A stretch of DNA of 21,204 nt from a virus (taxonomy: Duplodnaviria > Heunggongvirae > Uroviricota > Caudoviricetes): IMG/VR virus record IMGVR_UViG_2703718841_000002, one strand, 5' to 3'. Made by a program: the position numbers and the translations under genes. Under the pieces are notes generated by a model, which worked only from the letters and a program-made list of their open reading frames with translations, made no database searches and was not told where the DNA came from. The number at the start of each line of letters is the position of its first letter. Position 1 is the stretch's first letter. Of the stretch, positions 1 to 21,204 are shown piece after piece.

Positions 1-93
1 GCGGAGTTATCCCGCGTGGAGATAGTCGAGCTGCTCAGTCAGGAGTCGGAAAAATTTCACAATATCGGATTGTCTCGCGGGGAGGTGCTTTGA
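1..93 (+). CDS. 3' end of an upstream early-region gene (partial; stop TGA overlaps the next ATG)
   Basis: Open frame from window edge, reads ...[30 protein letters not shown]; stop overlaps start of next ORF, typical of coupled phage early genes. Confidence 0.3.
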
Positions 94-395
94 TGTCCTG
101 TTCTCGTTCAGTTGTATTACTGAATAACGCCTTAAAAATCACCGTTATGAAAAATGGCGATTTATCTCTTATTCAACTTGGTCTTGATAAAGAAAAACGC
201 GAAATAACTGAGTCTGTTATCGCGATTTATCAGAACGAATTAAATCTCCTGTCTGATGTGGTCAATTTACTTGTTAAACGCGCTGTATTTCACAAGCAAA
301 TCTCCTCCGTGGATGAACTGACGAAATTAACGACAGAAATTGCCAGCTATTGCGCTGATGAATTTAAAAAACTTAACGACAAAAGGAGCTGGTAA
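93..395 (+). CDS. Hypothetical small early-region protein (P2 orf80/81-like position)
   Basis: ORF track 90..395; the track start is TTG, first ATG at 93 (protein begins MM); sits in the cluster upstream of A. Confidence 0.55.
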   Translation: MSCSRSVVLLNNALKITVMKNGDLSLIQLGLDKEKREITESVIAIYQNELNLLSDVVNLLVKRAVFHKQISSVDELTKLTTEIASYCADEFKKLNDKRSW

Positions 396-619
396 TGCCG
401 GACAACGTAGATTTTATTCAGGAACAACAGGCTGAATTACTGGAGCGTCAGATTAACGCGGCAAGGGTAAAACATTGCGGTGCTTCTGCGCTGGTTTGCG
501 AAGAGTGTGACGCGCCAATACCTGCTGCCCGTCGTGCGGCTTATCCGTCAGCCACGCGTTGTGTTTCCTGCCAGTCAGTCTTTGAAGCAAAAAACAAACA
601 TTACCGGAGAACGGCATGA
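395..619 (+). CDS. TraR/DksA-family C4 zinc-finger protein (P2 Orf82-like)
   Basis: 74 aa with CEEC...x17...CVSC four-cysteine motif; start overlaps preceding stop (TAATG). Confidence 0.75.
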   Translation: MPDNVDFIQEQQAELLERQINAARVKHCGASALVCEECDAPIPAARRAAYPSATRCVSCQSVFEAKNKHYRRTA

Positions 620-891
620 GTATTCGTATTGAAATTGGCGAACGTTATGTCGTTACCAGTGACAGCTTTCAGTTTATTCTCCACGAGAAAAAGAGAGCGG
701 AAAGCGGTAAAAACGCCGGTCAGGAATGGCTGGCGGTGGTTGGTTATTATCCGAAATTAAGCCAGCTCGTTTCCGGCCTGATGCATCACGATATTCTGAC
801 CGGAAGCGCAAAGTCTTTTGCTGATTTAAACGCGCAGGTTGAGCAACTCAGCAGGCGTTGTTCAGAGGCTTTTGGCTCATATGGCCGTTAA
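616..891 (+). CDS. Hypothetical protein (P2 orf83-like position)
   Basis: 91-aa ORF immediately upstream of and overlapping the A start. Confidence 0.55.
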   Translation: MSIRIEIGERYVVTSDSFQFILHEKKRAESGKNAGQEWLAVVGYYPKLSQLVSGLMHHDILTGSAKSFADLNAQVEQLSRRCSEAFGSYGR

Positions 892-3154: not shown

Positions 3155-3326
3155 TAATGATGTTTGACAAAGAGATGTTGATGAGACTAAAAATTTTATT
3201 TGTCTGTATAACCATTCGGTTAGAGTACAATAGTTCCGAGTGATAGGAATACAAATAATGACTAAGTTTTCAACATGCGATTATTATGGGTTGAATTAAA
3301 GGTAAATAACTATGTTAAATAATATA

Positions 3327-3358
3327 GGGCAAGAGGGTGTTCTTGCCCTTTGTTTATT
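3327..3358. terminator. Candidate intrinsic terminator hairpin between A and the SIR2-like gene
   Basis: GGGCAAGA / TCTTGCCC 8-bp inverted repeat with 6-nt loop, followed by TTTGTTTATTT on the plus strand; overlaps the minus-strand stop codon. Confidence 0.45.
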
Positions 3359-5952: not shown

Positions 5953-6264
5953 TTTCCCTCCATAAATTATGTGTGAGAAGTGAGAATAATCCTAGGTGCG
6001 GTTATTTTTACATGAAATTCAATGGGTTTTCGTTTTTCTTACATGCGTTTTGTGACTGAGATCAAGCTATGAGGGAGGAATGTTCTTTTATTGTTCGCTA
6101 GAGGCTAATTGGCTAATAAGCTTTTACTAATCGTTTATGATGTACCATAGCGTTGAATGATTTTGCATGCATTTGTCAGATGTTTACTGATGTTGTTATG
6201 TCAGAGCTGGTGCGCTTTAGGTTATTTCATGCAACTGCATTAAAACCACCACATGAAGCGGGCG

Positions 6265-6283
6265 GGCGAGGCGGGGAAAGCAC
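6265..6283. other. cos: cos cohesive-end site (P2-type 19-nt sequence GGCGAGGCGGGGAAAGCAC)
   Basis: Exact match to the P2/186 cohesive-end sequence as I recall it, in the expected place between the cargo slot and Q; coordinates may be off by 1-2 nt. Confidence 0.6.
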
Positions 6284-6425
6284 TGCGCGCTGGCGGTGGT
6301 GCTGATTTTATTTTTTCAGCGTCTGAGCGCGTCGTGATGGCGTTTAGATTGTGCGCCGGGGTGTTGGTGTGTCTGCGGGATGTTTTGTGCGGTGGTGAGC
6401 GTGTGAGGGCGTGATGACGGGGTGT

Positions 6426-6447
6426 AAAAAAGCCGCCCGCAGGCGGC
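6426..6447 (-). terminator. Candidate intrinsic terminator downstream of Q
   Basis: GCCGCC / GGCGGC stem with 4-nt loop; on the minus strand it is followed by a run of six T (plus-strand AAAAAA at 6426-6431); a few nt past the Q stop. Confidence 0.5.
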
Positions 6448-6452
6448 GATGT

Positions 6453-7487
6453 TCAGCCGTTGTCAGTGTCCAGTGAGTAGTTTTTAAAGCGGATGACCTC
6501 CTGACCGAGCCAGCCGTTTATCTCGCGGATCCTGTCCTGTAACGGGATAAGCTCATTGCGGACAAAGACCTTTGCCACTTTCTCAATATCACCCAGCGAC
6601 CCGACGTTCTCCGGCTTGCCGCCCATCAACTGAAAGGGGATGCGGTGCGCGTCCAGCAGGTCTGCGGCACTGGCTTTTTTGATATTAAAAAAATCGTCCT
6701 TCGTCGCCACTTCACTGAGCGGGATAATTTTAATGCCGTCGGCTTTCCCTTGTGGGGCATAGAGAAACAGATTTTTAAAGTTGTTGCGGCCTTTCGACTT
6801 CACCATGTTTTCGCGAAGCATTTCGATATCGTTGCGATCCTGCACGGCATCGGTGACGTACATGATGTATCCGGCATGTGCGCCGTTTTCGTAATACTTG
6901 CGGCGGAACAGCGTGGCCGATTCATTCAGCCAGGCAGAGTTAAGGGCGCTGAGATATTCCGGCAGGCCGTACAGCTCCTGATTAATATCCGGCTCCAGCA
7001 GGTGAAACACGGAGCCGGGTGCGAAGGCTGTCGGCTCGTTGAAGGACGGCACCCACCAGTAAACATCCTCTTCCACGCCACGGCGGGTATATTTTGCCGG
7101 TGAGGTTTCCAGTCTGATGACCTTACCGGTGGTGCTGTAACGCTTTTCCAGAAACGCATTACCGAACACCAGAAAATCCAGCACAAAGCGGCTGAAATCC
7201 TGCTGGGAAAGCCACGGATGCGGGATAAATGTCGAGGCCAGAATATTGCGTTTGACGTAAATCGGGGAGCTGTGATGCACGGCAGCACGCAGGCTTTTTG
7301 CCAGACCGGTAAAGCTGACCGGTGGCTCATACCATCTGCCGTTACTGATGCACTCAACGTAATCCAGAATGTCACGGCGGTCGAGTACCGGCACCGGCTC
7401 GCCAAAGGTGAATGCTTCCATTTTCGGGGCGCTGGCGGTCATTGTTTTTGCCGCAGGTCGCGGTGTTTTCCCTTTTTTCTTGCTCAT
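6453..7487 (-). CDS. Q: Portal protein gpQ
   Basis: 344-aa ORF MSKKKGKTPRPAAKTM...; length and position match P2 Q; start overlaps the stop of P. Confidence 0.9.
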   Translation of the reverse strand: MSKKKGKTPRPAAKTMTASAPKMEAFTFGEPVPVLDRRDILDYVECISNGRWYEPPVSFTGLAKSLRAAVHHSSPIYVKRNILASTFIPHPWLSQQDFSRFVLDFLVFGNAFLEKRYSTTGKVIRLETSPAKYTRRGVEEDVYWWVPSFNEPTAFAPGSVFHLLEPDINQELYGLPEYLSALNSAWLNESATLFRRKYYENGAHAGYIMYVTDAVQDRNDIEMLRENMVKSKGRNNFKNLFLYAPQGKADGIKIIPLSEVATKDDFFNIKKASAADLLDAHRIPFQLMGGKPENVGSLGDIEKVAKVFVRNELIPLQDRIREINGWLGQEVIRFKNYSLDTDNG

Positions 7488-8098
7488 CAGTAAAACTCCA
7501 GAATGGTGGATGTCAGCGGGGTGCTGATACCGGCGGTGAGTGGCTCATTTAACAGGGCGTGCATGGTCGCCCAGGCGAGGTCGGCGTGGCTGGCTTCCTC
7601 GCTGCGGCTGGCCTCATAGGTGGCACTGCGTCCGCTGCTGGTCATGGTCTTGCGGATAGCCATAAACGAGCTGGTGATGTCGGTGGCGCTGACGTCATAT
7701 TCCAGACAGCCACGGCGGATAACGTCTTTTGCCTTGAGCACCATTGCGGTTTTCATTTCCGGCGTGTAGCGGATATCGCGCGCGGCGGGATAGAACGAGC
7801 GCACGAGCTGGAACACGCCGACACCGAGGCCGGTGGCATCAATCCCGATGTATTCAACGTTATATTTTTCGGTGAGTTTGCGGATGGATTCCGCCTGGGT
7901 GGCAAAGTCCATGCCTTTCCACTGGTGACGCTCAAGTATTCTGAATTTGCCACCGGCCACCACCGGCGGTGCCAGCACCACGCATCCGGCGCTGTCGCCA
8001 CGGTGTGACGGGTCGTAACCAATCCATACCGGGCGGGAGCCGAACGGATTGGCGGCAAACGGCGCATAGTCTTCCCATTCTTCCAGCGTGTCGACCAT
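7487..8098 (-). pseudogene. P: Terminase large subunit gpP, truncated: only the C-terminal nuclease-domain 203 codons remain
   Basis: ORF begins MVDTLEEWEDYAPF...VWIGYDPSHRGD; P2 P is ~590 aa; sequence upstream of 8098 is the capsid gene on the other strand. Confidence 0.7.
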
Positions 8099-8104
8099 GC
8101 AGCG

Positions 8105-9139
8105 TTGCAGCTCCTCGAACTGAACGGCATCGACGCCGGTGATGTGTCGAAAAAATTCACCGTTGAACCGTCGGTCACCCAGACCCTGATGAACACCATG
8201 CAGGAGTCCTCTGATTTTCTGACCCGCATCAACATTGTGCCGGTCAGCGAAATGAAAGGGGAAAAAATTGGTATTGGTGTCACCGGCTCCATCGCCAGCA
8301 CCACCGACACCGCCGGTGGCACCGAGCGTCAGCCGAAGGACTTCTCGAAGCTGGCGTCAAACAAGTACGAATGCGACCAGATTAACTTCGATTTTTATAT
8401 CCGCTACAAAACGCTTGACCTGTGGGCGCGTTATCAGGATTTCCAGCTCCGTATCCGTAACGCCATTATCAAACGCCAGTCCCTTGATTTCATCATGGCC
8501 GGTTTTAACGGCGTGAAGCGTGCCGAAACCTCTGACCGCAGCAGCAATCCGATGCTGCAGGATGTGGCGGTCGGCTGGCTGCAGAAATACCGCAATGAAG
8601 CCCCGGCGCGCGTGATGAGCAAGGTTACTGACGAGGAAGGTCACACCACCTCTGAGGTCATCCGCGTGGGTAAGGGCGGTGATTATGCCAGCCTCGATGC
8701 ACTGGTGATGGATGCGACCAACAACCTGATTGAGCCGTGGTATCAGGAAGACCCTGACCTTGTGGTGATTGTGGGGCGTCAGCTACTGGCGGACAAGTAT
8801 TTCCCCATCGTCAACAGGGAGCAGGACAACAGCGAAATGCTGGCCGCTGACGTCATCATCAGCCAGAAACGCATCGGTAACCTGCCGGCGGTACGCGTCC
8901 CGTACTTCCCGGCGGATGCGATGCTCATCACGAAGCTGGAAAACCTGTCCATCTACTACATGGATGACAGCCATCGCCGCGTGATTGAGGAAAACCCGAA
9001 ACTCGACCGCGTGGAGAACTACGAGTCAATGAACATTGATTACGTGGTGGAAGACTACGCCGCCGGTTGTCTGGTGGAAAAAATTAAGGTCGGTGATTTC
9101 TCCACACCGGCTAAAGCGACCGCAGAGTCGGGAGCGTAA
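8105..9139 (+). CDS. N: Major capsid protein gpN, 5'-truncated (native start and ~15 N-terminal codons missing; track start is a TTG)
   Basis: 344-aa ORF ...LELNGIDAGDVSKKFTVEPSVTQTLMNTMQESSDFLTR... recognised as P2 N; begins within a few nt of the truncated P. Confidence 0.8.
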   Translation: MQLLELNGIDAGDVSKKFTVEPSVTQTLMNTMQESSDFLTRINIVPVSEMKGEKIGIGVTGSIASTTDTAGGTERQPKDFSKLASNKYECDQINFDFYIRYKTLDLWARYQDFQLRIRNAIIKRQSLDFIMAGFNGVKRAETSDRSSNPMLQDVAVGWLQKYRNEAPARVMSKVTDEEGHTTSEVIRVGKGGDYASLDALVMDATNNLIEPWYQEDPDLVVIVGRQLLADKYFPIVNREQDNSEMLAADVIISQKRIGNLPAVRVPYFPADAMLITKLENLSIYYMDDSHRRVIEENPKLDRVENYESMNIDYVVEDYAAGCLVEKIKVGDFSTPAKATAESGA

Positions 9140-9142
9140 CCG

Positions 9143-9886
9143 ATGACGAGTCCCGCACAGCGCCACATGATGCGGGTCTCGGCAGCGATGACCGCGCAGC
9201 GGGAAGCCGCCCCGCTGCGACATGCAACTGTCTATGAGCAGATGCTGGTTAAGCTCGCCGCAGACCAGCGCACACTGAAAGCGATTTATTCAAAAGAGCT
9301 GAAGGCCGCGAAAAAACGCGAACTGCTGCCGTTCTGGTTGCCGTGGGTGAACGGCGTGCTGGACCAGGGCAAAGGTGCACAGGATGACATTCTGATGACG
9401 GTCATGCTGTGGCGTCTGGATACCGGCGATATTGCCGGTGCGCTGGAGATTGCCCGTTATGCCCTGAAGTACGGTCTGACCATGCCGGGTAAACACCGCC
9501 GCACCCCGCCGTACATGTTCACCGAGGAGGTGGCGCTCGCGGCCATGCGCGCTCACGCTGCCGGTGAGTCTGTGGATACCCGCCTGCTGACGGAGACCCT
9601 TGAACTGACCGCCACGGCTGACATGCCTGATGAAGTGCGCGCAAAGCTGCACAAAATCACCGGTCTGTTTCTGCGTGGCGCTGGTGATGCCGCCGGTGCG
9701 CTGTCGCACCTGCAACGTGCGACACAGCTCGACTGTCAGGCAGGCGTCAAAAAAGAGATTGAACGACTGGAGCGGGAGCTGAAACCGAAGCCGGAGCCGC
9801 AGCCAAAAGCGGCCACCCGCGCCCCGCATAAGACCCGGAGCGTGACACCGGCAAAACGTGGACGCCCGAAAAAGAAAGCCAGTTAA
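9143..9886 (+). CDS. M: Terminase small (endonuclease) subunit gpM
   Basis: 247-aa ORF directly after N, basic C-terminal tail; P2 M-like. Confidence 0.85.
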   Translation: MTSPAQRHMMRVSAAMTAQREAAPLRHATVYEQMLVKLAADQRTLKAIYSKELKAAKKRELLPFWLPWVNGVLDQGKGAQDDILMTVMLWRLDTGDIAGALEIARYALKYGLTMPGKHRRTPPYMFTEEVALAAMRAHAAGESVDTRLLTETLELTATADMPDEVRAKLHKITGLFLRGAGDAAGALSHLQRATQLDCQAGVKKEIERLERELKPKPEPQPKAATRAPHKTRSVTPAKRGRPKKKAS

Positions 9887-9985
9887 CAACCGAATGCGCC
9901 CCGCGCCAGGGCGGCACGCCGGTCAGTGAGGGTGAATCACCTGACACTGCACCGGCGTCCACCGCCCGACTTTTCAGAGGTAGTC

Positions 9986-10495
9986 ATGATGACGCTGATT
10001 ATTCCGCGAAAGGAGGCTCCCGTGTCCGGTGAGGGTACGGTGGTCATCCCGCAACCGGCAGGCGACGAGCCGGTGATTAAAAACACGTTCTTTTTTCCCG
10101 ATATCGACCCGAAGCGCGTCCGGGAACGTATGCGCCTTGAGCAGACCGTCGCCCCCGCCCGTCTGCGTGAGGCTATCAAGTCAGGCATGGCGGAGACAAA
10201 TGCGGAGCTGTACGAGTATCGCGAACAGAAAATTGCCGCCGGTTTTACGCGTCTGGCGGACGTCCCGGCGGACGACATCGACGGTGAAAGCATCAAAGTT
10301 TTTTACTACGAGCGCGCCGTGTGTGCGATGGCGACCGCGTCGCTTTATGAGCGTTATCGCGGCGTGGATGCCAGTGCGAAAGGCGACAAGAAGGCTGACA
10401 GCATTGACAGCACCATTGATGAGCTGTGGCGGGATATGCGCTGGGCGGTGGCGCGCATCCAGGGCAAGCCGCGCTGCATCGTGAGTCAAATCTGA
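9986..10495 (+). CDS. L: Head completion/stabilisation protein gpL
   Basis: ORF 9926..10495; preferred start at internal MMTLIIPRKEAP (9986), giving 169 aa. Confidence 0.8.
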   Translation: MMTLIIPRKEAPVSGEGTVVIPQPAGDEPVIKNTFFFPDIDPKRVRERMRLEQTVAPARLREAIKSGMAETNAELYEYREQKIAAGFTRLADVPADDIDGESIKVFYYERAVCAMATASLYERYRGVDASAKGDKKADSIDSTIDELWRDMRWAVARIQGKPRCIVSQI

Positions 10496-10698
10496 TGAAG
10501 ACCTTTGCGCTACAGGGCGACACGCTCGACGCCATTTGTGTCCGGTATTACGGGCGCACTGAGGGCGTGGTTGAGACCGTGCTTGCCGCAAATCCGGGGC
10601 TGGCTGAACTGGGGGCGGTGCTGCCACATGGCACCGCCGTCGAACTGCCCGACGTTCAGACCGCGCCCGTGGCTGAAACTGTCAATCTGTGGGAGTAA
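10495..10698 (+). CDS. X: Tail protein gpX
   Basis: 67-aa MKTFALQGDTLDAICVRYYG...; start overlaps the L stop (TGATG). Confidence 0.75.
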   Translation: MKTFALQGDTLDAICVRYYGRTEGVVETVLAANPGLAELGAVLPHGTAVELPDVQTAPVAETVNLWE

Positions 10699-10701
10699 CG
10701 C

Positions 10702-10983
10702 ATGACAGCAGAAGAAAAAAGCGTCCTGTCGCTTTTCATGATTGGAGTGCTGATTGTTGTCGGCAAGGTGCTTGCCGGTGGTGAACCCATCACCCCGCGT
10801 CTGTTTATCGGGCGCATGTTGCTCGGTGGTTTTGTCTCGATGGTTGCCGGTGTTGTTCTGGTGCAGTTTCCTGACCTGTCACTGCCTGCGGTGTGCGGTA
10901 TCGGCTCCATGCTGGGTATCGCCGGTTATCAGGTGATTGAGATTGCCATTCAGCGCCGCTTTAAGGGCAGGGGGAAACCGTAA
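10702..10983 (+). CDS. Y: Holin gpY
   Basis: 93-aa protein with hydrophobic transmembrane segments and basic C-terminus, first gene of the lysis cassette. Confidence 0.8.
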   Translation: MTAEEKSVLSLFMIGVLIVVGKVLAGGEPITPRLFIGRMLLGGFVSMVAGVVLVQFPDLSLPAVCGIGSMLGIAGYQVIEIAIQRRFKGRGKP

Positions 10984-11480
10984 TGCCGGTAATTAACACG
11001 CATCAGAATATCGCGGCCTTTCTCGACATGCTGGCAGTGTCCGAAGGGACGGCGAATCATCCGCTGACGAAAAACCGGGGCTATGACGTGATAGTCACCG
11101 GACTGGACGGGAAGCCGGAAATTTTCACCGACTACAGTGACCACCCGTTCGCGCATGGCCGACCGGCGAAGGTGTTTAACTGTCGCGGTGAAAAATCCAC
11201 GGCCTCCGGTCGCTATCAGCAGCTTTACCTGTTCTGGCCGCACTACCGCAAACAGCTTGCCCTGCCGGATTTCAGTCCGTTGTCACAGGACAGACTCGCC
11301 ATTCAGTTGATCCGCGAACGCGGTGCGCTGGATGACATCCGGGCGGGACGCATTGAGCGCGCCATTTCACGCTGTCGCAATATCTGGGCGTCCCTGCCGG
11401 GTGCCGGTTACGGTCAGCGTGAGCATTCACTGGAAAAACTGGTCACCGTCTGGCGTACCGCTGGCGGCGTACCGGCTTAA
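10983..11480 (+). CDS. K: Endolysin gpK (lysozyme-like)
   Basis: 165-aa soluble protein after the holin; P2 K-like. Confidence 0.8.
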   Translation: MPVINTHQNIAAFLDMLAVSEGTANHPLTKNRGYDVIVTGLDGKPEIFTDYSDHPFAHGRPAKVFNCRGEKSTASGRYQQLYLFWPHYRKQLALPDFSPLSQDRLAIQLIRERGALDDIRAGRIERAISRCRNIWASLPGAGYGQREHSLEKLVTVWRTAGGVPA

Positions 11481-11494
11481 ACGGAGTAAACACC

Positions 11495-11920
11495 ATGAAG
11501 AAATTATCCCTTTCACTGATGCTGAACGTGTCGCTGGCGCTGATGCTGGCACTGTCCCTGATTTACCCGCAGAGCGTGGCCGTCAGTTTTGTCGCCACCT
11601 GGGCGATTCTGGCGACGGTTATCTGTGTGGTTGCCGGTGGTGTCGGCGTGTATGCCACTGAGTATGTGCTGGAACGCTACGGGCGTGAGCTGCCGCCTGA
11701 ATCGCTGGCCGTGAAGATTGTCACGTCGCTGTTTTTGCAGCCGGTGCCGTGGCGCAGACGGGCGGCGGCTCTGGTGGTGATGGTGGCGACGTTTATCTCG
11801 CTGGTCGCTGCCGGGTGGATTTTTACCGCGCTGATTTACCTCGTGGCGTCGGTGTTCTTCCGGCTGATACGTACGGCCTGTCGTCAGCGTTTTGAGGGGC
11901 GGGAACCATGTCAAAGCTGA
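11495..11920 (+). CDS. lysA: Lysis-timing membrane protein LysA
   Basis: 141 aa with about four hydrophobic helices, after the endolysin. Confidence 0.7.
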   Translation: MKKLSLSLMLNVSLALMLALSLIYPQSVAVSFVATWAILATVICVVAGGVGVYATEYVLERYGRELPPESLAVKIVTSLFLQPVPWRRRAAALVVMVATFISLVAAGWIFTALIYLVASVFFRLIRTACRQRFEGREPCQS

Positions 11921-12333
11921 TGATTGTGATGGTTGTGTTGTTATCGCTGGCGGTGGCGGGGCTGTTTCTGGCGAAGCATGAAAACGCCAGCCTGCGCGCC
12001 TCGCTGGACAGGGTGAACAGCGTCGCCAGTGAACAGCAGACGACCATCACCATGCTGAAAAATCAGCTTCATGTTGCCCTCACCAGGGCAGACAAAAACG
12101 AGCTGGCGCAGGTGGCACTGCGTCAGGCGCTGGAGAACGCCGCGAAGCGTGAAGCACTGCGCGAGAAAACCATCACGAGGTTACTTAATGAAAACGAGGA
12201 TTTTCGCCGCTGGTATGGCGCTGACCTGCCTGATGCTGTGCGCCGGTTGCACCAGCGTCCGGCCTGCACCGACGCCAGTGATTGTCCACAACGCCTGCCC
12301 GAAAGTGAGCCTTTGCCCGATGCCGGGCAGTGA
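11908..12333 (+). CDS. lysB: i-spanin LysB (Rz-like)
   Basis: 141 aa, N-terminal transmembrane helix then charged coiled-coil-like region. Confidence 0.7.
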   Translation: MSKLMIVMVVLLSLAVAGLFLAKHENASLRASLDRVNSVASEQQTTITMLKNQLHVALTRADKNELAQVALRQALENAAKREALREKTITRLLNENEDFRRWYGADLPDAVRRLHQRPACTDASDCPQRLPESEPLPDAGQ

Positions 12334-12478
12334 CCCGCAGAAGAACGGCGATTTAAGTGCTGATATCCGGCAGCTTGAGAACGCGCTGGCACGCTGTGCC
12401 AGCCAGGTAAAAATGATTAAACACTGTCAGGACGAAAACGATGCTCAAACCCGACAGCCTGCGCAGGGCGCTGACTGA
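12188..12478 (+). CDS. lysC: o-spanin lipoprotein LysC (Rz1-like), partly embedded in lysB in another frame
   Basis: Internal ATG of ORF 12071..12478 gives MKTRIFAAGMALTCLMLCAGC... with an LCAGC lipobox; 96 aa. Confidence 0.65.
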   Translation: MKTRIFAAGMALTCLMLCAGCTSVRPAPTPVIVHNACPKVSLCPMPGSDPQKNGDLSADIRQLENALARCASQVKMIKHCQDENDAQTRQPAQGAD

Positions 12479-12908
12479 TGCCGTCACGGTGCTGAAAACT
12501 AACCCCGATATGCTGCGGATATTCGTGGATAACGGGAGTATTGCCTCCACGCTAGCGGAGTCGTTGTCATTCGAAAAGCGTTACACGCTCAATGTCATTG
12601 TGACCGACTTTACCGGTGATTTTGACCTGCTCATCGTGCCGGTGCTGGCGTGGCTGCGGGAAAATCAGCCCGACATCATGACCACCGACGAAGGCCAGAA
12701 AAAGGGCTTCACGTTTTATGCAGACATCAACAATGACAGCAGCTTTGATATCAGCATCAGCCTGATGCTGACCGAGCGCACGCTGGTCAGTGAGGTGGAC
12801 GGCGCACTGCATGTGAAGAATATCCCGGAACCCACGCCGCCGGAGCCGGTCACCCGCCCGATGGAGCTTTATATCAATGGTGAACTGGTGAGCAAGTGGG
12901 ATGAATGA
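12441..12908 (+). CDS. R: Tail completion protein gpR
   Basis: 155-aa ORF MLKPDSLRRALTDAVTVLKTNPDML...; P2 R-like. Confidence 0.85.
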   Translation: MLKPDSLRRALTDAVTVLKTNPDMLRIFVDNGSIASTLAESLSFEKRYTLNVIVTDFTGDFDLLIVPVLAWLRENQPDIMTTDEGQKKGFTFYADINNDSSFDISISLMLTERTLVSEVDGALHVKNIPEPTPPEPVTRPMELYINGELVSKWDE

Positions 12909-13359
12909 GTTTAAGCGTTTTGAAGACCGGCTGACCGGACTGATTGAGTCGCTGTCACCGTCAGGGCGTCGGCGACTGGCGGTAGATATTGCGAAGAAGC
13001 TGCGCCAGCGCCAGCAGCAGCGAATTAAATTACAAAAAGCCCCGGATGGTACGCCGTATGTACCGAGAAAAAACCAACCAGTACGAAATAAGAAAGGCCG
13101 GATAAAGCGGGAAATGTTTGTGAAATTACGCACTAACCGGTTTATGAAAGCAACAGGTAGCGAGAGTGCGGCGGTGGTGGCGTTTGCCAGCGGAGTACAA
13201 CGAATTGCGCGAGTACATCAATTAGGGCTTAGGGATAAGCCGGGGCGTAATAGTGCTGTGGTGGAATATCCTGTTCGTGAGTTATTTGGTTTTGACAAGG
13301 AATCTATACAATTGATAGAAAGGGAGTTATTAGTGATTCTATCGAAAGATGTTATATGA
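12901..13359 (+). CDS. S: Tail completion protein gpS (3' end is AT-rich, possibly a chimeric C-terminus)
   Basis: 152-aa ORF MNEFKRFEDRLTGLIESLSPSGRRRL...; composition turns AT-rich from about 13200. Confidence 0.8.
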   Translation: MNEFKRFEDRLTGLIESLSPSGRRRLAVDIAKKLRQRQQQRIKLQKAPDGTPYVPRKNQPVRNKKGRIKREMFVKLRTNRFMKATGSESAAVVAFASGVQRIARVHQLGLRDKPGRNSAVVEYPVRELFGFDKESIQLIERELLVILSKDVI

Positions 13360-14111
13360 GACGGGTGTTTGTGGATAAAAAGTTTTCCATTTTGAGAAAA
13401 AGAGTAAAGCATTCTCAAAAGAAAGTTATGGATTGTATTATTGCTGACCATAATGCTGATATATGTGTGTTATGCGGGAGTTCTGACGATATTACTCGTG
13501 AGCACATTATTCCTCAGTGGGCCTTTGAGTCAAATGCTGAAAAATCTTTAATTAATAAAAAGAATAATCAGTCAACTCATTACATTAAAGCCACTGTACC
13601 AGCATGCAGAGTGTGCAATTCTGATTTGCTGGGAGTGTTTGAGTATAACCTGAAGAAATTTCTTACGGAAAAGAGAGGGGAGGAGTTAACAGATTATGAG
13701 TATGATTGCATCATATGGTGGTTGCAATACATGGGTTTTAAGTTGCAATTAATGGATTTGCGGAACCGCTTTCTCAGGTATAAAGGTGGTGATTATATCC
13801 CGTTTCTTGCAAACTTCCCGGTTGCAATGTTTTGGGGGAATGTCGATACGACGCCGGGGGATGTCTTCAGGATTATACGAAAATCGCGACGCAATCTGAT
13901 GTCGAAATGGAAGGATAAAAAACATAATTCTTTGATGGTTTTTGAAACATCAAACAAGAGTTTTCATTTCTTTCATAAGGTTGATGAATTTATTTTTATT
14001 GAAATTCCTCAGGTTAAGAAGGCGTTTTTCTTCTTTTTTAATAAAGAATTTGACAGCCATGATTTAGCTCATGAGGAGTGTATGAAGATTATAGAGAAGT
14101 GCTACAACTAA
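13356..14111 (+). CDS. HNH-motif endonuclease-like protein; candidate accessory/defence gene at the S-V moron site
   Basis: 251-aa AT-rich ORF with CVLCGSSDDITREHIIPQW and a second CRVCN pair; start overlaps the S stop. Confidence 0.6.
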   Translation: MRRVFVDKKFSILRKRVKHSQKKVMDCIIADHNADICVLCGSSDDITREHIIPQWAFESNAEKSLINKKNNQSTHYIKATVPACRVCNSDLLGVFEYNLKKFLTEKRGEELTDYEYDCIIWWLQYMGFKLQLMDLRNRFLRYKGGDYIPFLANFPVAMFWGNVDTTPGDVFRIIRKSRRNLMSKWKDKKHNSLMVFETSNKSFHFFHKVDEFIFIEIPQVKKAFFFFFNKEFDSHDLAHEECMKIIEKCYN

Positions 14112-14188
14112 TATTTGTTATGTTGTGTCACAGCTGACAGAACCCTCCATGATTGCTGCTGGTATCGTCCAGCGGCATCCTTCCCGTT
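14112..14188 (+). promoter_or_regulatory. Possible Ogr-dependent late promoter upstream of V (imperfect TGT-N11/13-ACA dyad)
   Basis: TGTTATGTTGTGTCACAGCTGACA in the intergenic region ahead of V; spacing does not match the TGT-N12-ACA consensus exactly. Confidence 0.25.
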
Positions 14189-14824
14189 ATGAACACTCTC
14201 GCAAATATTCAGGAACTCGCGCGCGCACTGCGCAATATGATTCGCACCGGCGTTATCGTCGAAACCGACCTTAACGCCGGTCGCTGCCGTGTGCAGACCG
14301 GCGGCATGTGCACCGACTGGCTTCAGTGGTTGACCCATCGTGCCGGGCGTTCGCGTACATGGTGGGCACCTTCCGTGGGGGAACAGGTGCTGATTCTGGC
14401 CGTGGGCGGTGAACTTGACACGGCGTTTGTTCTGCCGGGGATTTATTCCGGTGATAACCCCGCGCCGTCTGCGTCGGCGGATGCCCTGCATATCCGTTTC
14501 CCTGACGGGGCGGTGATTGAGTATGAACCCGAAACCAGTGCACTCATGGTAAGCGGAATTAAAACGGCCAGCGTGACGGCTTCTGATTCTGTTACTGCCA
14601 CGGTGCCGGTGGTCATGGTGAAAGCATCAACCCGCATCACCATGGACGCACCGGAGGTGGTCTGCACCAACAGGCTGATTACCGACACGCTGGAAGTGCA
14701 GAAGGGCGGGACGATGCGCGGCAACATTGAACACACCGGCGGTGAACTCTCATCAAACGGTAAGGTACTGCATACCCATAAACACCCCGGCGACAGCGGC
14801 GGCACAACCGGGAGTCCTCTATGA
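14189..14824 (+). CDS. V: Baseplate spike/assembly protein gpV
   Basis: ORF 14153..14824; preferred start MNTLANIQELARALRNM at 14189 (211 aa). Confidence 0.85.
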   Translation: MNTLANIQELARALRNMIRTGVIVETDLNAGRCRVQTGGMCTDWLQWLTHRAGRSRTWWAPSVGEQVLILAVGGELDTAFVLPGIYSGDNPAPSASADALHIRFPDGAVIEYEPETSALMVSGIKTASVTASDSVTATVPVVMVKASTRITMDAPEVVCTNRLITDTLEVQKGGTMRGNIEHTGGELSSNGKVLHTHKHPGDSGGTTGSPL

Positions 14825-15168
14825 CAGCGCGTTATCTCGGAATGAATCGCAGTGATGGCCTGACTGTCACTGACCTTGAGCATATCAGCCAGAGTATCGG
14901 CGATATCCTGCGCACACCGGTCGGCTCACGGGTGATGCGTCGTGATTACGGCTCGTTGCTGGCGTCAATGATTGACCAGCCGCAGACCCCGGCGCTTGAG
15001 TTGCAGATTAAGGTCGCCTGTTACATGGCCGTGCTGAAATGGGAACCCCGCGTCACCCTGTCATCCGTCACCACGGCGCGCAGTTTTGACGGGCGAATGA
15101 CGGTCACGTTAACCGGCCAGCACAACGACACCGGCCAGCCACTTTCGTTAACCATCCCTGTGAGTTGA
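14821..15168 (+). CDS. W: Baseplate wedge protein gpW
   Basis: 115-aa ORF overlapping the V stop; P2 W-like. Confidence 0.85.
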   Translation: MTARYLGMNRSDGLTVTDLEHISQSIGDILRTPVGSRVMRRDYGSLLASMIDQPQTPALELQIKVACYMAVLKWEPRVTLSSVTTARSFDGRMTVTLTGQHNDTGQPLSLTIPVS

Positions 15169-15172
15169 AACC

Positions 15173-16081
15173 ATGCCGATTATCGACCTGAACCAGCTAC
15201 CCGCACCGGATGTGGTCGAGGAGCTGGACTTTGAAACCATTCTTGCCGAACGCAAGGCGACACTGATTTCCCTTTACCCGGAAGACCAGCAGGAGGCGGT
15301 CGCCCGTACCCTGACGCTGGAATCTGAGCCTCTCGTCAAACTGCTGGAGGAAAATGCTTATCGTGAGCTTATCTGGCGTCAGCGTGTGAATGAGGCTGCA
15401 CGGGCGGTGATGCTGGCCTGTGCCGCCGGTAATGACCTTGATGTGATTGGTGCCAATTACAACACCACACGCCTGATTATCACCCCGGCAGATGATTCGA
15501 CCCTCCCGCCGACACCGGCCGTGATGGAATCTGACACCGATTATCGTCTGCGTATTCAGCAGGCGTTTGAAGGTTTAAGCGTCGCCGGGTCGGTGGGGGC
15601 CTATCAGTATCATGGTCGAAGTGCCGACGGGCGTGTCGCAGATATCTCTGTCACCAGTCCTTCTCCGGCCTGCGTCACCATCTCTGTGCTGTCACGTGAA
15701 AATAACGGTGTGGCATCCGAAGACCTGCTGGCGGTGGTGCGCAACGCCCTTAATGGTGAGGACGTCAGACCGGTGGCCGACCGTGTGACCGTGCAGTCTG
15801 CCGTCATCGTTGAATACCAGATAAATGCCACGCTTTACCTTTACCCTGGCCCCGAAAGCGAACCCATTCGCGCTGCCGCCGTGAAAAAACTGGAAGCGTA
15901 TATCACGGCACAGCACCGGCTGGGGCGCGACATCCGACTGTCTGCCATTTATGCCGCTTTGCATGTGGAAGGCGTGCAGCGTGTCGAACTGGCTGCACCG
16001 CTGGCCGACATCGTGCTCAACAATACGCAGGCGTCTTTCTGTACCGAATACAGCGTCGTGACAGGAGGCTCGGATGAGTGA
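15173..16081 (+). CDS. J: Baseplate assembly protein gpJ
   Basis: 302-aa ORF in conserved V-W-J-I order. Confidence 0.85.
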   Translation: MPIIDLNQLPAPDVVEELDFETILAERKATLISLYPEDQQEAVARTLTLESEPLVKLLEENAYRELIWRQRVNEAARAVMLACAAGNDLDVIGANYNTTRLIITPADDSTLPPTPAVMESDTDYRLRIQQAFEGLSVAGSVGAYQYHGRSADGRVADISVTSPSPACVTISVLSRENNGVASEDLLAVVRNALNGEDVRPVADRVTVQSAVIVEYQINATLYLYPGPESEPIRAAAVKKLEAYITAQHRLGRDIRLSAIYAALHVEGVQRVELAAPLADIVLNNTQASFCTEYSVVTGGSDE

Positions 16082-16685
16082 TTCGCGACTGCTGCCGACC
16101 GGCTCATCACCGCTTGAAGTCGCTGCCGCAAAAGCCTGTGCGGAAATTGAAAAAACGCCGGTCAGTATTCGTGAGCTGTGGAACCCGGACACCTGCCCGG
16201 CAAATCTGCTGCCGTGGCTGGCGTGGTCATTTTCGGTTGACCGCTGGGATGATAAGTGGCCGGAAGCGACAAAACGCGCTGTTATCCGCGATGCGTATTT
16301 CATTCACTGCCATAAGGGCACTATAGGCGCAATCCGGCGTGTGGTGGAGCCGCTCGGCTATCTGATTGAGGTGAGGGAGTGGTGGCAGCTCAACGAGGAG
16401 CCGGGGACGTTCCGCATCGTTGTTGGCGTGCTTGAGCAGGGTATTACCGAGGAAATGTATCAGGAGCTGGAGCGCCTCGTTGCTGATGCAAAACCGGCAA
16501 GCCGCCATCTGACGGGACTGGCTATCAGTTTAAGTACAACCGGCAACATTTTTGCCGGTGCGGGATGCTATCACGGTGACGCCCTGACGGTTTATCCCTA
16601 CACCCCGGAGGCCATTATTGTCGGAGGGGATTATTTCCCGGCCTCGGCCATTCATTTAATTGATAACCTGAGAGTAAACGCATGA
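16074..16685 (+). CDS. I: Baseplate/tail protein gpI
   Basis: 203-aa ORF MSDSRLLPTGSSPLEVAAAKACAEIEK...; overlaps the J stop. Confidence 0.8.
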   Translation: MSDSRLLPTGSSPLEVAAAKACAEIEKTPVSIRELWNPDTCPANLLPWLAWSFSVDRWDDKWPEATKRAVIRDAYFIHCHKGTIGAIRRVVEPLGYLIEVREWWQLNEEPGTFRIVVGVLEQGITEEMYQELERLVADAKPASRHLTGLAISLSTTGNIFAGAGCYHGDALTVYPYTPEAIIVGGDYFPASAIHLIDNLRVNA

Positions 16686-17989
16686 CAGTGAAATACTACG
16701 CCATTCTGACTAATCAGGGCGCAGCACGGCTGGCTAACGCGACGATGCTCGGCAGTAAGCTGAATCTGACGCAAATGGCCGTTGGTGATGCGAATGGTGT
16801 CTTGCCGACACCAGACCCGGCACAGACAAAACTGATTAATCAGAAACGCATCGCGCCGCTGAATCTTCTGAGTGTTGACCCGAACAACCAGAGCCAGATT
16901 ATTGCGGAGCAAATCATCCCTGAGAACGAGGGCGGATTCTGGATCCGTGAGATTGGGCTTTATGATGATGAAGGCGTACTCATTGCGGTGGCGAACTGCC
17001 CGGAAACGTACAAACCGCAGTTGCAGGAAGGCAGTGGTCGTACCCAGACTATCCGCATGATTCTGGTTGTCACGAATACCGAAGCTATTACGCTGAAAAT
17101 CGACCCGTCGGTGGTACTGGCGACCCGTAAATACGTGGATGATAAAGTCCTGGAATTAAAGCTGTATGTGGATGACCAGATGAGAAACCACATTGCCGCA
17201 CAAGATCCTCATACCCAGTATGCGCAGAAACATAATCCGACATTTACCGGAGAACCAAAAGCGCCGACGCCTGCAGCAGGAAATAACACCACGCGGATTG
17301 CGACCACTGAGTTTGTTCAGGCCGCTATTACTGCTCTGATTAACGGTGCGCCAGCCACGCTGGACACACTGAAAGAAATTGCCGCAGCCATTAACAATGA
17401 CCCGAAATTCAGTACCACCATTAACAATGCGCTGTCAGGTAAGCAGCCACTGGATGAGACGCTGACTCATTTGAGTGGAAAGGATGTTGCCGGTCTTCTC
17501 GCATACCTTGGTTTGGGAGAAGGCTCTGCATTACCTGTTGGTGTCCCTGTTCCGTGGCCTTCAGCCACTCCGCCAACAGGCTGGCTGAAATGCAACGGAG
17601 CAGCTTTTTCTGCTGAAGAATACCCGGAACTGGCAAAGGCTTACCCGACAAATAAATTGCCAGATTTACGTGGTGAGTTTATTCGTGGCTGGGATGACGG
17701 GCGTGGTATTGATGCTGGACGTGCTTTATTGAGCCTTCAGGCTGGGATGCTGGAAAAACACCGCCATATTGTTGTTGCCAATGATGGTTACGACACAAAA
17801 GATGAATGGGAACTGGCTACGATTTTCAAAAAAACATACACACAAGGACGGGGACTTGATGCCACAAATACAGGAGGGAGTCTGATCCCATCACCGACAC
17901 TTCATTCACGAGGGAGTATCGGTAATACTGGCGGGAGTGAGACCCGTCCACGAAATATTGCATTTAACTTTATCGTAAGGGCTGCATAA
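16682..17989 (+). CDS. H: Tail fibre protein gpH with a tail-collar-like C-terminal receptor-binding module
   Basis: 435 aa; conserved N-terminal fibre anchor (GGFWIREIGLYDDEGVLIAVANCPETYKP) and C-terminal PVPWP...GW..CNG..........YP.L motif region; shorter than P2 H (~669 aa). Confidence 0.8.
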   Translation: MTVKYYAILTNQGAARLANATMLGSKLNLTQMAVGDANGVLPTPDPAQTKLINQKRIAPLNLLSVDPNNQSQIIAEQIIPENEGGFWIREIGLYDDEGVLIAVANCPETYKPQLQEGSGRTQTIRMILVVTNTEAITLKIDPSVVLATRKYVDDKVLELKLYVDDQMRNHIAAQDPHTQYAQKHNPTFTGEPKAPTPAAGNNTTRIATTEFVQAAITALINGAPATLDTLKEIAAAINNDPKFSTTINNALSGKQPLDETLTHLSGKDVAGLLAYLGLGEGSALPVGVPVPWPSATPPTGWLKCNGAAFSAEEYPELAKAYPTNKLPDLRGEFIRGWDDGRGIDAGRALLSLQAGMLEKHRHIVVANDGYDTKDEWELATIFKKTYTQGRGLDATNTGGSLIPSPTLHSRGSIGNTGGSETRPRNIAFNFIVRAA

Positions 17990-18597
17990 TGGATAACGCA
18001 GTATTAAATAGCGAGTTTATTGCCACGAAGGCGGGGAATATTACCGTCTATAACTACGATGGTGAAACTCGGGAATATATTTCTGCATCAACTGAATATC
18101 TTGCAGTGGGTGTCGGTATTCCAGCATATTCCTGTTTAGACGCTCCTGGTACATATAAGGCTGGTTATACAATTTGCCGTTCTGTAGATTTAAATTCATG
18201 GGAATATGTGCCAGACCATCGCGGTGAAATCGTCTATAACACCGAGACGGGAGATGCCAAAGAAATCACAGCACCGGGTGATTACCCCGAAAATACAACC
18301 ACTATCGCCCCATTAACGCCATACGATAAATGGGATGGTGAGAAATGGGTGACCGATACTGAGGCACAGCATAGCGCCGCAGTAGACGCGGCAGAAGCAC
18401 AGCGTCAGTCACTGATTGATACTGCAATGGCTTCCATTAGTCTGATTCAGCTGAAATTACAGGCCGGACGGAATCTGACGCAGTCAGAAACCAGCCGACT
18501 TAACACGGTGTTGGATTACATTGACGCGGTGACGGCAACAGATACCAGCACCGCGCCGGATGTTATCTGGCCTGAACTGCCGGAGACTGCGCAATAA
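17989..18597 (+). CDS. G: Tail fibre assembly chaperone gpG
   Basis: 202-aa ORF directly after H, ends ...VIWPELPETAQ. Confidence 0.75.
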   Translation: MDNAVLNSEFIATKAGNITVYNYDGETREYISASTEYLAVGVGIPAYSCLDAPGTYKAGYTICRSVDLNSWEYVPDHRGEIVYNTETGDAKEITAPGDYPENTTTIAPLTPYDKWDGEKWVTDTEAQHSAAVDAAEAQRQSLIDTAMASISLIQLKLQAGRNLTQSETSRLNTVLDYIDAVTATDTSTAPDVIWPELPETAQ

Positions 18598-18733
18598 ACT
18601 CACCATCAATATATAAATCCCCCTGCTGTGTGTCAGCAGGGCATTCTTTCCATATTAATGATGGATGGAATCTTCCTTCAGGATTAATTTCCGTTATCTC
18701 TTCTACTTTATTTTCTTCAATTCTTGCCCACAT
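18563..18733 (-). CDS. Small hypothetical ORF (56 aa), AT-rich, convergent with G
   Basis: Internal ATG of track ORF 18563..18991 gives MWARIEENKVEEITEINPEGRFHPSLIWKECPADTQQGDLYIDGEFIAQSPAVQAR; the upstream part of that track ORF is an alternate frame of the Gly-rich ORF. Confidence 0.3.
   Translation of the reverse strand: MWARIEENKVEEITEINPEGRFHPSLIWKECPADTQQGDLYIDGEFIAQSPAVQAR
18621..18641 (+). terminator. Hairpin after G (CCCTGCTG-tgtgt-CAGCAGGG), weak terminator candidate
   Basis: Perfect 8-bp inverted repeat just after the G stop, followed by moderately T-rich sequence; also lies inside a possible minus-strand small ORF. Confidence 0.3.
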
Positions 18734-18740
18734 ATGAACC

Positions 18741-19157
18741 TCACCAGTAAATATAAACTGCGCCATCTGCTCCGGCACCCGACTGACCCGTTGATGAATT
18801 AGGACATAATCCAGCTCCGCCACCTCCAGGCCCAACTGCTGATACCGCTTTTCCGTTAGCTGTATCTCTGAATGAACCTGCTCCTCCGGGGCCACCACCA
18901 GAACCACCATTACCAGCTCCCGATGCGGCAGAAGCAATGGAACCTGGAGAACCTGGCCCAAGCGATGTATTAATTGTTCCCCCGACACCAACTGCTCCTA
19001 ACCCTCCGGAAGGCTGGCCTCCGCTATAGCCTCCGGAAGCTGACATGTAAGTCCCGAAACTGCTCGAGCCACCATTTTTACCGTTTACAGAAATACCAGA
19101 CACAGGCGCACCACCGGTACTGGAAAAACTCGGTGTTATCAACAAAGAGTCAGACAC
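18741..19157 (-). CDS. Glycine-rich ORF fragment (138 aa), possible remnant of G-FI cargo or of a fibre/adhesin-like gene
   Basis: Minus-strand ORF with repeated GGxGG/SGxG tracts (...GNGGSGGGPGGAGS...GPGGGGAG...); the plus-strand frames here look non-coding. Confidence 0.4.
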   Translation of the reverse strand: MSDSLLITPSFSSTGGAPVSGISVNGKNGGSSSFGTYMSASGGYSGGQPSGGLGAVGVGGTINTSLGPGSPGSIASAASGAGNGGSGGGPGGAGSFRDTANGKAVSAVGPGGGGAGLCPNSSTGQSGAGADGAVYIYW

Positions 19158-19164
19158 ACTTGAC

Positions 19165-19434
19165 CAGACCGCCGCCAGAACTCAAGCCGCCACGTATGGC
19201 CGCGGTGGTTATATTCCGGCGACCAGCTCTTATGCAGGCTATCAGGCTTATCAGCCGGTCACGGTACCGGCTGGTCGCTCTTATGTGGACCAGAGTAAAA
19301 ACGAATATCACATCAGTCTGACGGGCGGTACTGCGCCGGGGACACAGCTTGACCGCCAGTTACAGGATGCACTCGAAAAATACGAGCGGGATAAACGTGC
19401 GCGCGCCCGTGCCAGCATGATGCATGACGGTTAA
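19165..19434 (+). pseudogene. T: 3' remnant (~88 codons) of tape-measure gene T; the rest of T and genes FI, FII, E are absent
   Basis: Frame reads ...TYGRGGYIPATSSYAGYQAYQPVTVPAGRSYVDQSKNEYHISLTGGTAPGTQLDRQLQDALEKYERDKRARARASMMHDG* ending just before the U RBS (AAGGAGG); coordinates approximate (+/- 2 nt). Confidence 0.55.
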
Positions 19435-19448
19435 GGAGGTGACGAAAA

Positions 19449-19928
19449 ATGATGCTCGCGTTAGGTATGTTTGTTTTTATGCGCCAGACGCTGCCACACC
19501 AGACCATGCAGCGTGAATCAGATTATCGCTGGCCGTCAAATTCCCGTATCGGTAAACGGGATGCCTTTCAGTTTCTCGGTGTGGGTGAGGAAAACATCAC
19601 GCTTGCCGGCGTGCTTTATCCCGAACTGACCGGCGGGAAGCTGACGATGACCACGCTCAGACTGATGGCAGAGGAAGGCCGGGCGTGGCCGTTGCTGGAT
19701 GGCACCGGCATGATTTACGGCATGTATGTCATCAGCAGGGTGAGTGAAACAGGGAGTATTTTCTTTGCAGACGGCACACCCCGGAAAATTGATTTTACGC
19801 TGTCGCTCACCCGCGTTGATGAATCACTGGCCGCGCTTTATGGCGATATCGGTAAACAGGCGGAATCGCTCATCGGTAAGGCTGGCAGTATGGCGACCAG
19901 ATTCACGGGTATGACGGGGGTGGGATAA
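19449..19928 (+). CDS. U: Tail protein gpU
   Basis: 159-aa ORF with AAGGAGG RBS; P2 U-like. Confidence 0.85.
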   Translation: MMLALGMFVFMRQTLPHQTMQRESDYRWPSNSRIGKRDAFQFLGVGEENITLAGVLYPELTGGKLTMTTLRLMAEEGRAWPLLDGTGMIYGMYVISRVSETGSIFFADGTPRKIDFTLSLTRVDESLAALYGDIGKQAESLIGKAGSMATRFTGMTGVG

Positions 19929-20904
19929 TGCTGGATGCGCTGACATTTGATGCAGGCAGTACGCTGACGCCGGATTACATGCTGATGCTCGACAGCAGGG
20001 ATATTACCGGCAATATCAGCGACCGTCTGATGAGTATGACCCTGACGGATAACCGGGGCTTTGAGGCTGACCAGCTTGATATTGAACTGAACGATGCCGA
20101 CGGGCAGGTCGGGCTGCCGGTTCGTGGCGCTGTCCTGACGGTGTATATCGGCTGGAAAGGTTTTGCTCTGGTATGCAAAGGGAAATTTACCGTTGATGAG
20201 GTTGAACACCGGGGCGCGCCGGATGTGGTCACCATCCGCGCCCGGAGTGCAGATTTCCGCGGGACGCTCAATTCCCGCCGTGAAGGTTCATGGCATGACA
20301 CCACGCTCGGTGCGATTGTTGAGGCGATAGCCTCCCGTAACAGGCTGGAAGCCAGAGTCGCTCCGTCACTGGCCGGAATTAAAATCCCACACATCGACCA
20401 GTCGCAGGAGTCCGACGCGAAATTCCTGACCCGTCNNNNNNNNNNNNNNNNNNNNNNNNNNNNNNNNNNNNNNNNNNNNNNNNNNNNNNNNNNNNNNNNN
20501 NNNNNNNNNNNNNNNNNNNNNNNNNNNNNNNNNNNNNNNNNNNNNNNNNNNNNNNNNNNNNNNNNNNNNNNNNNNNNNNNNNNNNNNNNNNNNNNNNNNN
20601 NNNNNNNNNNNNNNNNNNNNNNNNNNNNNNNNNNNNNNNNNNNNNNNNNNNNNNNNNNNNNNNNNNNNNNNNNNNNNNNNNNNNNNNNNNNNNNNNNNNN
20701 NNNNNNNNNNNNNNNNNNNNNNNNNNNNNNNNNNTTTACACGGAAACACCGGTCAAAGTGTCTGGCTTTAAGCGCGTCATAGACGAGCAGGACTGGACAA
20801 TCACTAAGGTGACACACTTTCTGAATAATTCCGGCTTCACGACGTCCTTAGAGCTTGAGGTCAGGCTTTCTGATGTGGAGTACGAAACAGAAGATGATGA
20901 GTGA
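19928..20904 (+). CDS. D: Tail protein gpD (late-control gene D), interrupted by an assembly gap
   Basis: N-terminal MLDALTFDAGSTLTPDYMLMLDSRDITGN...; after the N run the frame resumes ...VKVSGFKRVIDEQDWTITKVTHFLNNSGFTTSLELEVRLSDVEYETEDDE*; frames either side of the gap differ, so the gap length is not the true length. Confidence 0.75.
20436..20734. other. Assembly gap (run of 299 N)
   Basis: Uninterrupted N characters inside gene D. Confidence 0.99.
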
Positions 20905-20985
20905 TGTTTTTATTTTATCTGTTTGTTTTATAAGGATAAATTAACTAAAATGGCACCATCAACAAAACCGGAAGAGGTGCTCGCG

Positions 20986-21204
20986 ATGTTTCATTGTCCT
21001 TTATGCCAGCATGCCGCACATGCGCGTACAAGCCGCTATATCACTGACACGACAAAAGAGCGTTATCACCAGTGCCAGAACGTGAATTGCAGCGCCACGT
21101 TCATCACTTATGAGTCGGTACAGCGATACATCGTGAAGCCGGGAGAAGTCCACGCCGTAAGACCGCACCCGTTGCCGTCAGGGCAGCAAATTATGTGGAT
21201 GTAA
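20986..21204 (+). CDS. ogr: Late gene transcription activator Ogr (zinc-finger)
   Basis: ORF 20923..21204; preferred start MFHCPLCQHAAHARTSRYITDTTKERYHQCQNVNCSATF... (72 aa) with the four-Cys motif; stop is the last codon of the window. Confidence 0.85.
   Translation: MFHCPLCQHAAHARTSRYITDTTKERYHQCQNVNCSATFITYESVQRYIVKPGEVHAVRPHPLPSGQQIMWM

Follow-up and report, generated by a model that had tools for sequence, protein, structure and literature searches.

A defective P2-type prophage with two deletions at 5-bp junctional homologies and the apparent relic of an invertible tail-fibre cassette

In intact P2-like prophages, the tail-fibre assembly gene G and the gene U are separated by the genes of the tail core, which raises the question of why the two lie only 851 bases apart in the DNA analysed here, and by what route the intervening genes were lost. 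The window, by which the whole stretch of 21,204 nt is meant (IMG/VR record IMGVR_UViG_2703718841_000002), had been interpreted from its letters alone, and this sequence-only reading proposed that a second large deletion had removed the tail core, leaving the end of the tape-measure gene T running into the ribosome-binding site of U. Alignment to intact relatives bears out both parts of this proposal.

Between 66 and 75% of the window aligns at ~97% identity with P2, L-413C and related phages (R18C among them), and many E. coli prophages also match. The best match, with 90% coverage and 97.4% identity, is the TK3887 prophage (NZ_AP044767.1, here L003), an intact P2-like element of E. coli which sits between pflA and pflB. 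These alignments identify the window as a P2-type (Peduovirus) prophage, and the absence of tail genes described below makes it a defective member of that group. Its segments correspond to L003 as follows:

Window 1-8120: L003 3001-11120, collinear
Window 8116-13060: L003 13396-18340, with 2,275 nt absent between this block and the preceding one
Window 13061-14151: L003 18341-18662, the cargo between S and V being different
Window 14152-17713: L003 18663-22224, collinear
Window 17714-19115: no collinear L003 match, the fibre cassette being different (17944-18585, in G, is an 88% match)
Window 19116-20435: L003 28936-30255, collinear
Window 20436-20734: L003 30256-30741, 299 N where L003 has 486 nt
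Window 20735-21204: L003 30742-31210, collinear

An exact copy of GGCGAGGCGGGGAAAGCAC, the P2 cohesive-end 19-mer, is found at 6265-6283, between the cargo hotspot and Q (chance expectation 0), and the defective element thus still carries cos. Rfam and tRNA scans found nothing in the window. Two cargo genes were recorded:

3358-5952, minus strand: SIR2-family protein, 864 aa (Pfam SIR2_2; PADLOC SIR2 domains of the Argonaute-associated and PDC-S65 models)
13356-14111: ORF of 251 aa in the S-V cargo

The SIR2 gene occupies the cargo hotspot of P2, which lies between A and cos/Q, and TK3887 has this gene too. Between S and V, 1,091 nt (13061-14151) stand in for 322 nt of TK3887, and the 251-aa ORF encoded there has no Pfam or PADLOC family, giving a sub-threshold hint of HNH_5 (E 0.0099).

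The interval between G and U

The features on which the question turns are the following:

17989-18597, plus strand: G, tail-fibre assembly (chaperone) gene for the expressed tip, 202 aa (Pfam Caudo_TAP, E 3.7e-32; PHROG 105)
19116-19120: deletion junction, 5-bp GGTAC common to the fibre-tip exon and T
19117-19434, plus strand: remnant of T (tape measure), last 105 codons and stop (tblastn, alignment, ORF list)
19449-19928, plus strand: U, intact, 159 aa (Pfam Phage_P2_GpU, E 3.7e-44; 98% identical to TK3887 gpU over 159 aa)
19928-20904, plus strand: D, interrupted by 299 N (20436-20734), residues 1-169 and 333-387 present (tblastn)

The end of G at 18597 and the start of U at 19449, as first placed, agree with the annotated genes of relatives, and Pfam matches both. 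The interval between them is without FI, FII, E/E' and the first 710 codons of T. When the proteins of the TK3887 prophage were used as tblastn queries, the C-terminal end only of T, full-length U and both ends of D were recovered, and FI, FII, E, E' and the invertase gave no match anywhere in the window, an outcome which indicates that the gap between G and U is real.

The segment upstream of U aligns to T, as had been proposed, at 97-98% DNA identity; from 19116 onward the identity to the P2-type T of P2, L-413C and TK3887 is 97.3-98.3%. The translation of this remnant, VLEKLGVINKESDTLDQ...MMHDG and stop, equals residues 711-815 of TK3887 gpT at 103 of the 105 positions, and its extent thus exceeds the ~88 codons originally estimated. 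Full-length gpT, of ~815 aa, is absent, 87% of T having been lost. The first in-frame start codon in the remnant is the GTG at 19285, and given that none precedes it, the remnant is considered a pseudogene; no Pfam or PHROG match was obtained for it. The T stop is followed by GGAGG and then by the start codon of U, which is the arrangement described in the sequence-only reading. In D, the 299 N stand against 486 nt in TK3887, so that the N run misstates the length of the gap and the two fragments of D do not share a reading frame. A contig from a sister assembly (L004, described below) stops exactly at 20435, the edge of the N run, and this coincidence suggests that 20436-20734 harbours either a repeat or IS element or else a third lesion.

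The junction itself had been expected near 19160 and was mapped ~40 nt leftward. The alignment of the fibre cassette (to L001, the prophage of strain 2018-11-3CC) runs to 19120, and the alignment of T (to L-413C and TK3887) starts at 19116. The cassette parent reads ...CCACCGGTAC/CAACCG... and the T parent ...GACTGGGTAC/TGGAAAAAC..., and, together with the overlap of the alignments, the two place the join within the GGTAC microhomology. On the left, the break falls within the alternative fibre-tip exon, and 241 nt separate it from the right crossover site of the cassette; the GGTAC on the T side is 319 nt away from the end of T. The loss amounts to ~5.3 kb, an estimate from a composite of two relatives: 267 nt of L006 (10222-10488) and 5,035 nt of L003 (23901-28935). 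A chimeric minus-strand ORF (18741-19157) spans the junction; it corresponds to no called gene on record, and no database protein covers its chimeric N-terminus.

The fibre cassette left of the junction

The sequence left of the junction is organized as follows:

16682-17989, plus strand: H, tail-fibre gene, 435 aa (Pfam Phage_tail_fib, 1.4e-62, and Collar, 4.5e-15; PHROG 327)
17496-17521: crossover site of 26 bp, TTCTCGCATACCTTGGTTTGGGAGAA, inside H, left end of the cassette (regular-expression scan)
18563-18766, minus strand: ORF of 67 codons, convergent with G; L001 and L007 have an annotated hypothetical protein at this position
18621-18641: G+C-rich hairpin with 8 perfect pairs, directly 3' of the G stop (consensus scan)
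18741-19115, minus strand: alternative (silent) fibre-tip exon, glycine-rich, 5'-truncated (PHROG 863, 1.7e-8; homologues carry PF21722)

The segment 17505-19120 is 99.75% identical to one found in several E. coli prophages and, judging from its sequence and layout, derives from an invertible tail-fibre cassette of the Din family (Pin/Cin/Gin-type). Invertible fibre loci have been documented in P2-like E. coli prophages (PMC4272514). The constant part of H extends to ~codon 272 and is followed by the variable tip now expressed, with its Collar domain; H is collinear with the TK3887 H up to 17713, and the G counterparts of L001, L006 and L007 bear the annotation "tail fiber assembly protein". 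The layout of a switch is thus present, with H and G on the plus strand and the glycine-rich tip remnant and the 67-codon ORF on the minus strand. The earlier observation that only minus-strand ORFs precede T holds, and it can be taken further, given that 18598-19115 reads as the inverted half of this cassette.

Relatives provide the missing parts. In TK3887 the cassette ends in two inverted 26-bp sites (TTCTC...GGAGAA), and in L001, L003, L006 and L007 the cassette adjoins a gene for a serine recombinase, under the name of either "recombinase family protein" or pinE. L001 carries the cassette in the opposite orientation to that of the window, with the glycine-rich tip, silent in the window, fused to H: the silent exon is 99.75% identical to L001 9842-10221, the C-terminus of the expressed H. 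The same exon is annotated as a glycine-rich domain-containing protein in L007. In L006 (S1-IND-01-A) the cassette is oriented as in the window and its right end is intact, the tip exon running 241 nt further (10222-10462) to a site at 10463-10488, which is followed by pinE. The window keeps the last 124 codons and the stop of this exon, the first ~80 codons (241 nt) being gone.

The site at 17496-17521 is identical to the left site of L003 (22007-22032), which shows both sites; the strict-pattern scan found no second site in the window, a pattern that also matched one site each in L001, L006 and L007, the partners of which fell outside it. These sites were missed by a generic inverted-repeat finder and were detected with a degenerate pattern. 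The TK3887 recombinase gave no tblastn match in the window. With the right site and the invertase gene deleted, H would be frozen with an orphan crossover site at 17496-17521, and the cassette is best described as a frozen relic with no working switch. P2 itself has Z/fun at this position, and the sequence-only reading had listed Z/fun, FI, FII, E, E' and most of T as missing; the FI-T part of that list stands, and Z/fun has to be replaced by an invertase, since the ancestor evidently carried, as TK3887 does, a Pin-type invertible cassette and its invertase between G and FI.

The 67-codon ORF is found on the downstream side of the alternative fibre tip, the position at which one would expect an alternative chaperone, and it has no Pfam or PHROG match. 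The hairpin at 18621-18641, which is terminator-like on both strands and may function as such, falls within this ORF, a position which casts doubt on the coding nature of the 3' part of the ORF.

It was also observed that a 99.8% identical cassette adjoins pinE in a prophage of a non-P2 myovirus type (L006 8320-11098; L007 7987-10765), where ymfQ, baseplate J/gp47 and DNA circularization protein genes are nearby. The occurrence of the same cassette in P2-type and non-P2 prophages shows that unrelated prophages have recently exchanged fibre cassettes as whole units.

Origin of the two deletions

The window contains a second junction of the same kind:

8116-8120 (context 7487-9139): junction of the P-O-N deletion, 5-bp CGAAC microhomology

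This deletion, of 2,275 nt relative to TK3887, removes residues 1-380 of the terminase P, all of the scaffold gene O and residues 1-16 of the capsid protein N. As the window is draft scaffold sequence with a run of 299 N, it must be asked whether the G-U junction is an artefact of assembly or scaffolding, i.e., a collapsed or chimeric join with another P2-like prophage in an element in which the FI-T block is really present. The databases offer some room for this explanation, given that both junctions are absent from 5,426 complete E. coli genomes, and scans for the exact junctions returned nothing in the GTDB species representatives or the JGI metagenomes. Both junctions do recur, however, in IMG/VR contigs of genome 2703718840, that of the P-O-N deletion in UViG_2703718840_000003. 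Two contigs of this near-identical second assembly correspond to window 14866-20435 (L004, with 4 SNPs) and window 1-10173 (L005, with 10 SNPs).

All 14 SNPs cluster at 9128-9704 and 15030-15217, away from both junctions, and the 1 kb on each side of the G-U junction is SNP-free between the two assemblies. The breaks of the sister assembly at 10173, 14866 and 20435, with SNPs beside them, look as if a paralogous P2-like prophage had confused the assembly, and the clustering fits either recombination with a second P2-like prophage or assembly mixing from one; the TK3887 alleles at these SNPs gave no indication as to which of the two assemblies is mixed. The clusters flank 10174-14865, the part of the window that is absent from the sister contigs. 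A scan of IMG/VR with FI 32-mers yielded, among the matches listed, no contig of genome 2703718840.

The recurrence of both junctions in an assembly which differs by SNPs elsewhere argues against a misjoin, although the second genome could be that of the same strain or of a sister strain, and its corroboration is thus not fully independent proof. The two sides of the G-U junction, moreover, share only 5 bp, far under the k-mer or overlap length of any assembler, and they are non-homologous, one being an opposite-strand fibre-tip exon and the other T. Given the evidence on both sides, an artefact is considered quite unlikely.

Most probably, then, this is a P2-type prophage recently inactivated by two illegitimate deletions, independent of RecA and mediated by microhomology, and now in decay. 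The homology at each junction measures exactly 5 bp (GGTAC at one, CGAAC at the other), with one copy kept (parents L001/L006, L002 and L003), whereas an identity of at least 5 bp is expected at ~0.5% of random blunt joins, a value calculated as the sum of (k+1)(1/4)^k(3/4)^2 for k of 5 or more. It is the coincidence of two such junctions that points to microhomology-mediated illegitimate recombination. At the G-U junction, the GGTAC in the silent, inverted fibre-tip exon would have been joined to the GGTAC near the end of T, through replication slippage or RecA-independent joining, for example. This event would have eliminated the 241 nt of the exon start, the right 26-bp site, the serine invertase gene and the region ahead of FI, together with FI (sheath), FII (tube), E/E' and the bulk of T.

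The serine invertase of the cassette itself could, in principle, have produced this deletion by recombining the right crossover site with a pseudo-site in direct orientation in T, given that Din-family enzymes can occasionally delete between directly oriented sites, that the deletion starts close to the right end of the cassette, and that the invertase itself was removed. The left breakpoint, however, lies 241 nt inside the cassette and off the 26-bp site (compare L006 10222-10488), the T-side sequence GGGTAC/TGGAAAAACTCGG is unlike the site consensus, and the unrelated P-O-N deletion shares the 5-bp signature with no site nearby. This origin is thus extremely unlikely, and invertase-mediated deletion was ruled out as a candidate on the distance of the breakpoint from the site.

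State of the element and comparison with known systems

Two microhomology-mediated deletions, the preferred reading, would leave an element without any prospect of producing particles: no tail would be expected to form without the sheath, tube, E/E' and tape measure, nor heads without P, O and an intact N, and the fibre would be locked as the Collar-type tip plus G, with no invertase and a single site. The late promoter of P2 lies upstream of FI. With the region ahead of FI deleted, U and D would lose their own promoter and lie behind the terminator-like hairpin at 18621-18641, so that, on the consensus scans and what is known of P2, both are probably poorly expressed. The remaining genes are full length, apart from D with its N gap, and the inactivation therefore looks recent.

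The sequence-only reading had called the prophage "domesticated or decaying", and the two deletions uphold the second term; nothing demonstrates selection for the genes that were kept, as the first would imply. A module held by selection for its defence cargo, its lysis cassette or its baseplate and fibre genes would account for the intact state of what remains, including the 864-aa SIR2-family defence-type gene and the lysis genes. Recent deletions, however, explain intact flanking genes equally well, and the occurrence of the deletions in one lineage among thousands of genomes gives no sign of long-term retention. In addition, D is also disrupted or gapped, and no function is known for a baseplate and fibre that lack the tube, sheath and tape measure. 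Domestication is thus very improbable. An R-type tailocin, or domesticated contractile tail, was ruled out as a candidate, given the absence of the sheath, tube and tape measure in the tblastn searches.

There is also a slight chance that the doubly deleted element persists as a helper-dependent passenger, for which a co-resident intact P2-like prophage supplies heads and tails. The element keeps cos, the replication gene A, ogr, the lysis genes and the SIR2 defence gene, and it is ~7.6 kb shorter than its intact relative; the SNP clusters and the contig breaks in the sister assembly hint at a co-resident P2-like prophage. If this were true, the remnant would spread its defence cargo in the manner of a satellite.

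Under the reading of recent decay, the element is an ordinary crippled P2-type prophage, the deletional decay of prophages being an everyday phenomenon in E. coli; it is the particular deletion alleles that are absent from the complete-genome collections searched. In annotation, the locus should be entered as a defective P2-like prophage that contains a T pseudogene, a silent fibre-tip exon in truncated form and one orphan crossover site, and neither inducibility nor tailocin production should be predicted for it. Its importance beyond annotation is small, although it provides a clean and datable case of the apparent inactivation of a prophage by two 5-bp microhomology deletions and an example of a phase-variable fibre switch frozen by the loss of its invertase, and it could serve as a lineage marker for the strain.

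Among known systems, the closest are TK3887, P2 and L-413C, which share with the window the gene order (A, SIR2 cargo, Q, N-M-L-X-Y-K-lysABC-R-S, V-W-J-I-H, U, D, ogr) at ~97% DNA identity. Between G and FI, TK3887 has the invertible fibre cassette and a recombinase; relative to it, the window is without the 2,275 nt of P-O-N and the ~5.3 kb from the invertase to T, and has a variable fibre cassette and S-V cargo of another kind.

The Din-family segments, i.e., the G segment of Mu with Gin, the C segment of P1 with Cin, the P segment of e14 with PinE and their P2-like counterparts (PMC4272514), have in common with the window a constant fibre N-terminus, a 26-bp TTCTC...GGAGAA crossover site within the fibre gene, and alternative tip and chaperone genes that are convergent; the cassette of the window is, moreover, 99.8% identical to that adjoining pinE in other E. 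coli prophages. In contrast with a Din-family switch, the window has a single site, no invertase and a silent tip exon truncated at its 5' end.

Finally, the cryptic or defective prophages of E. coli resemble the window in having lost essential morphogenesis genes while keeping cargo and some late genes, from which the window differs in showing little decay beyond two clean microhomology deletions and the gap in D.
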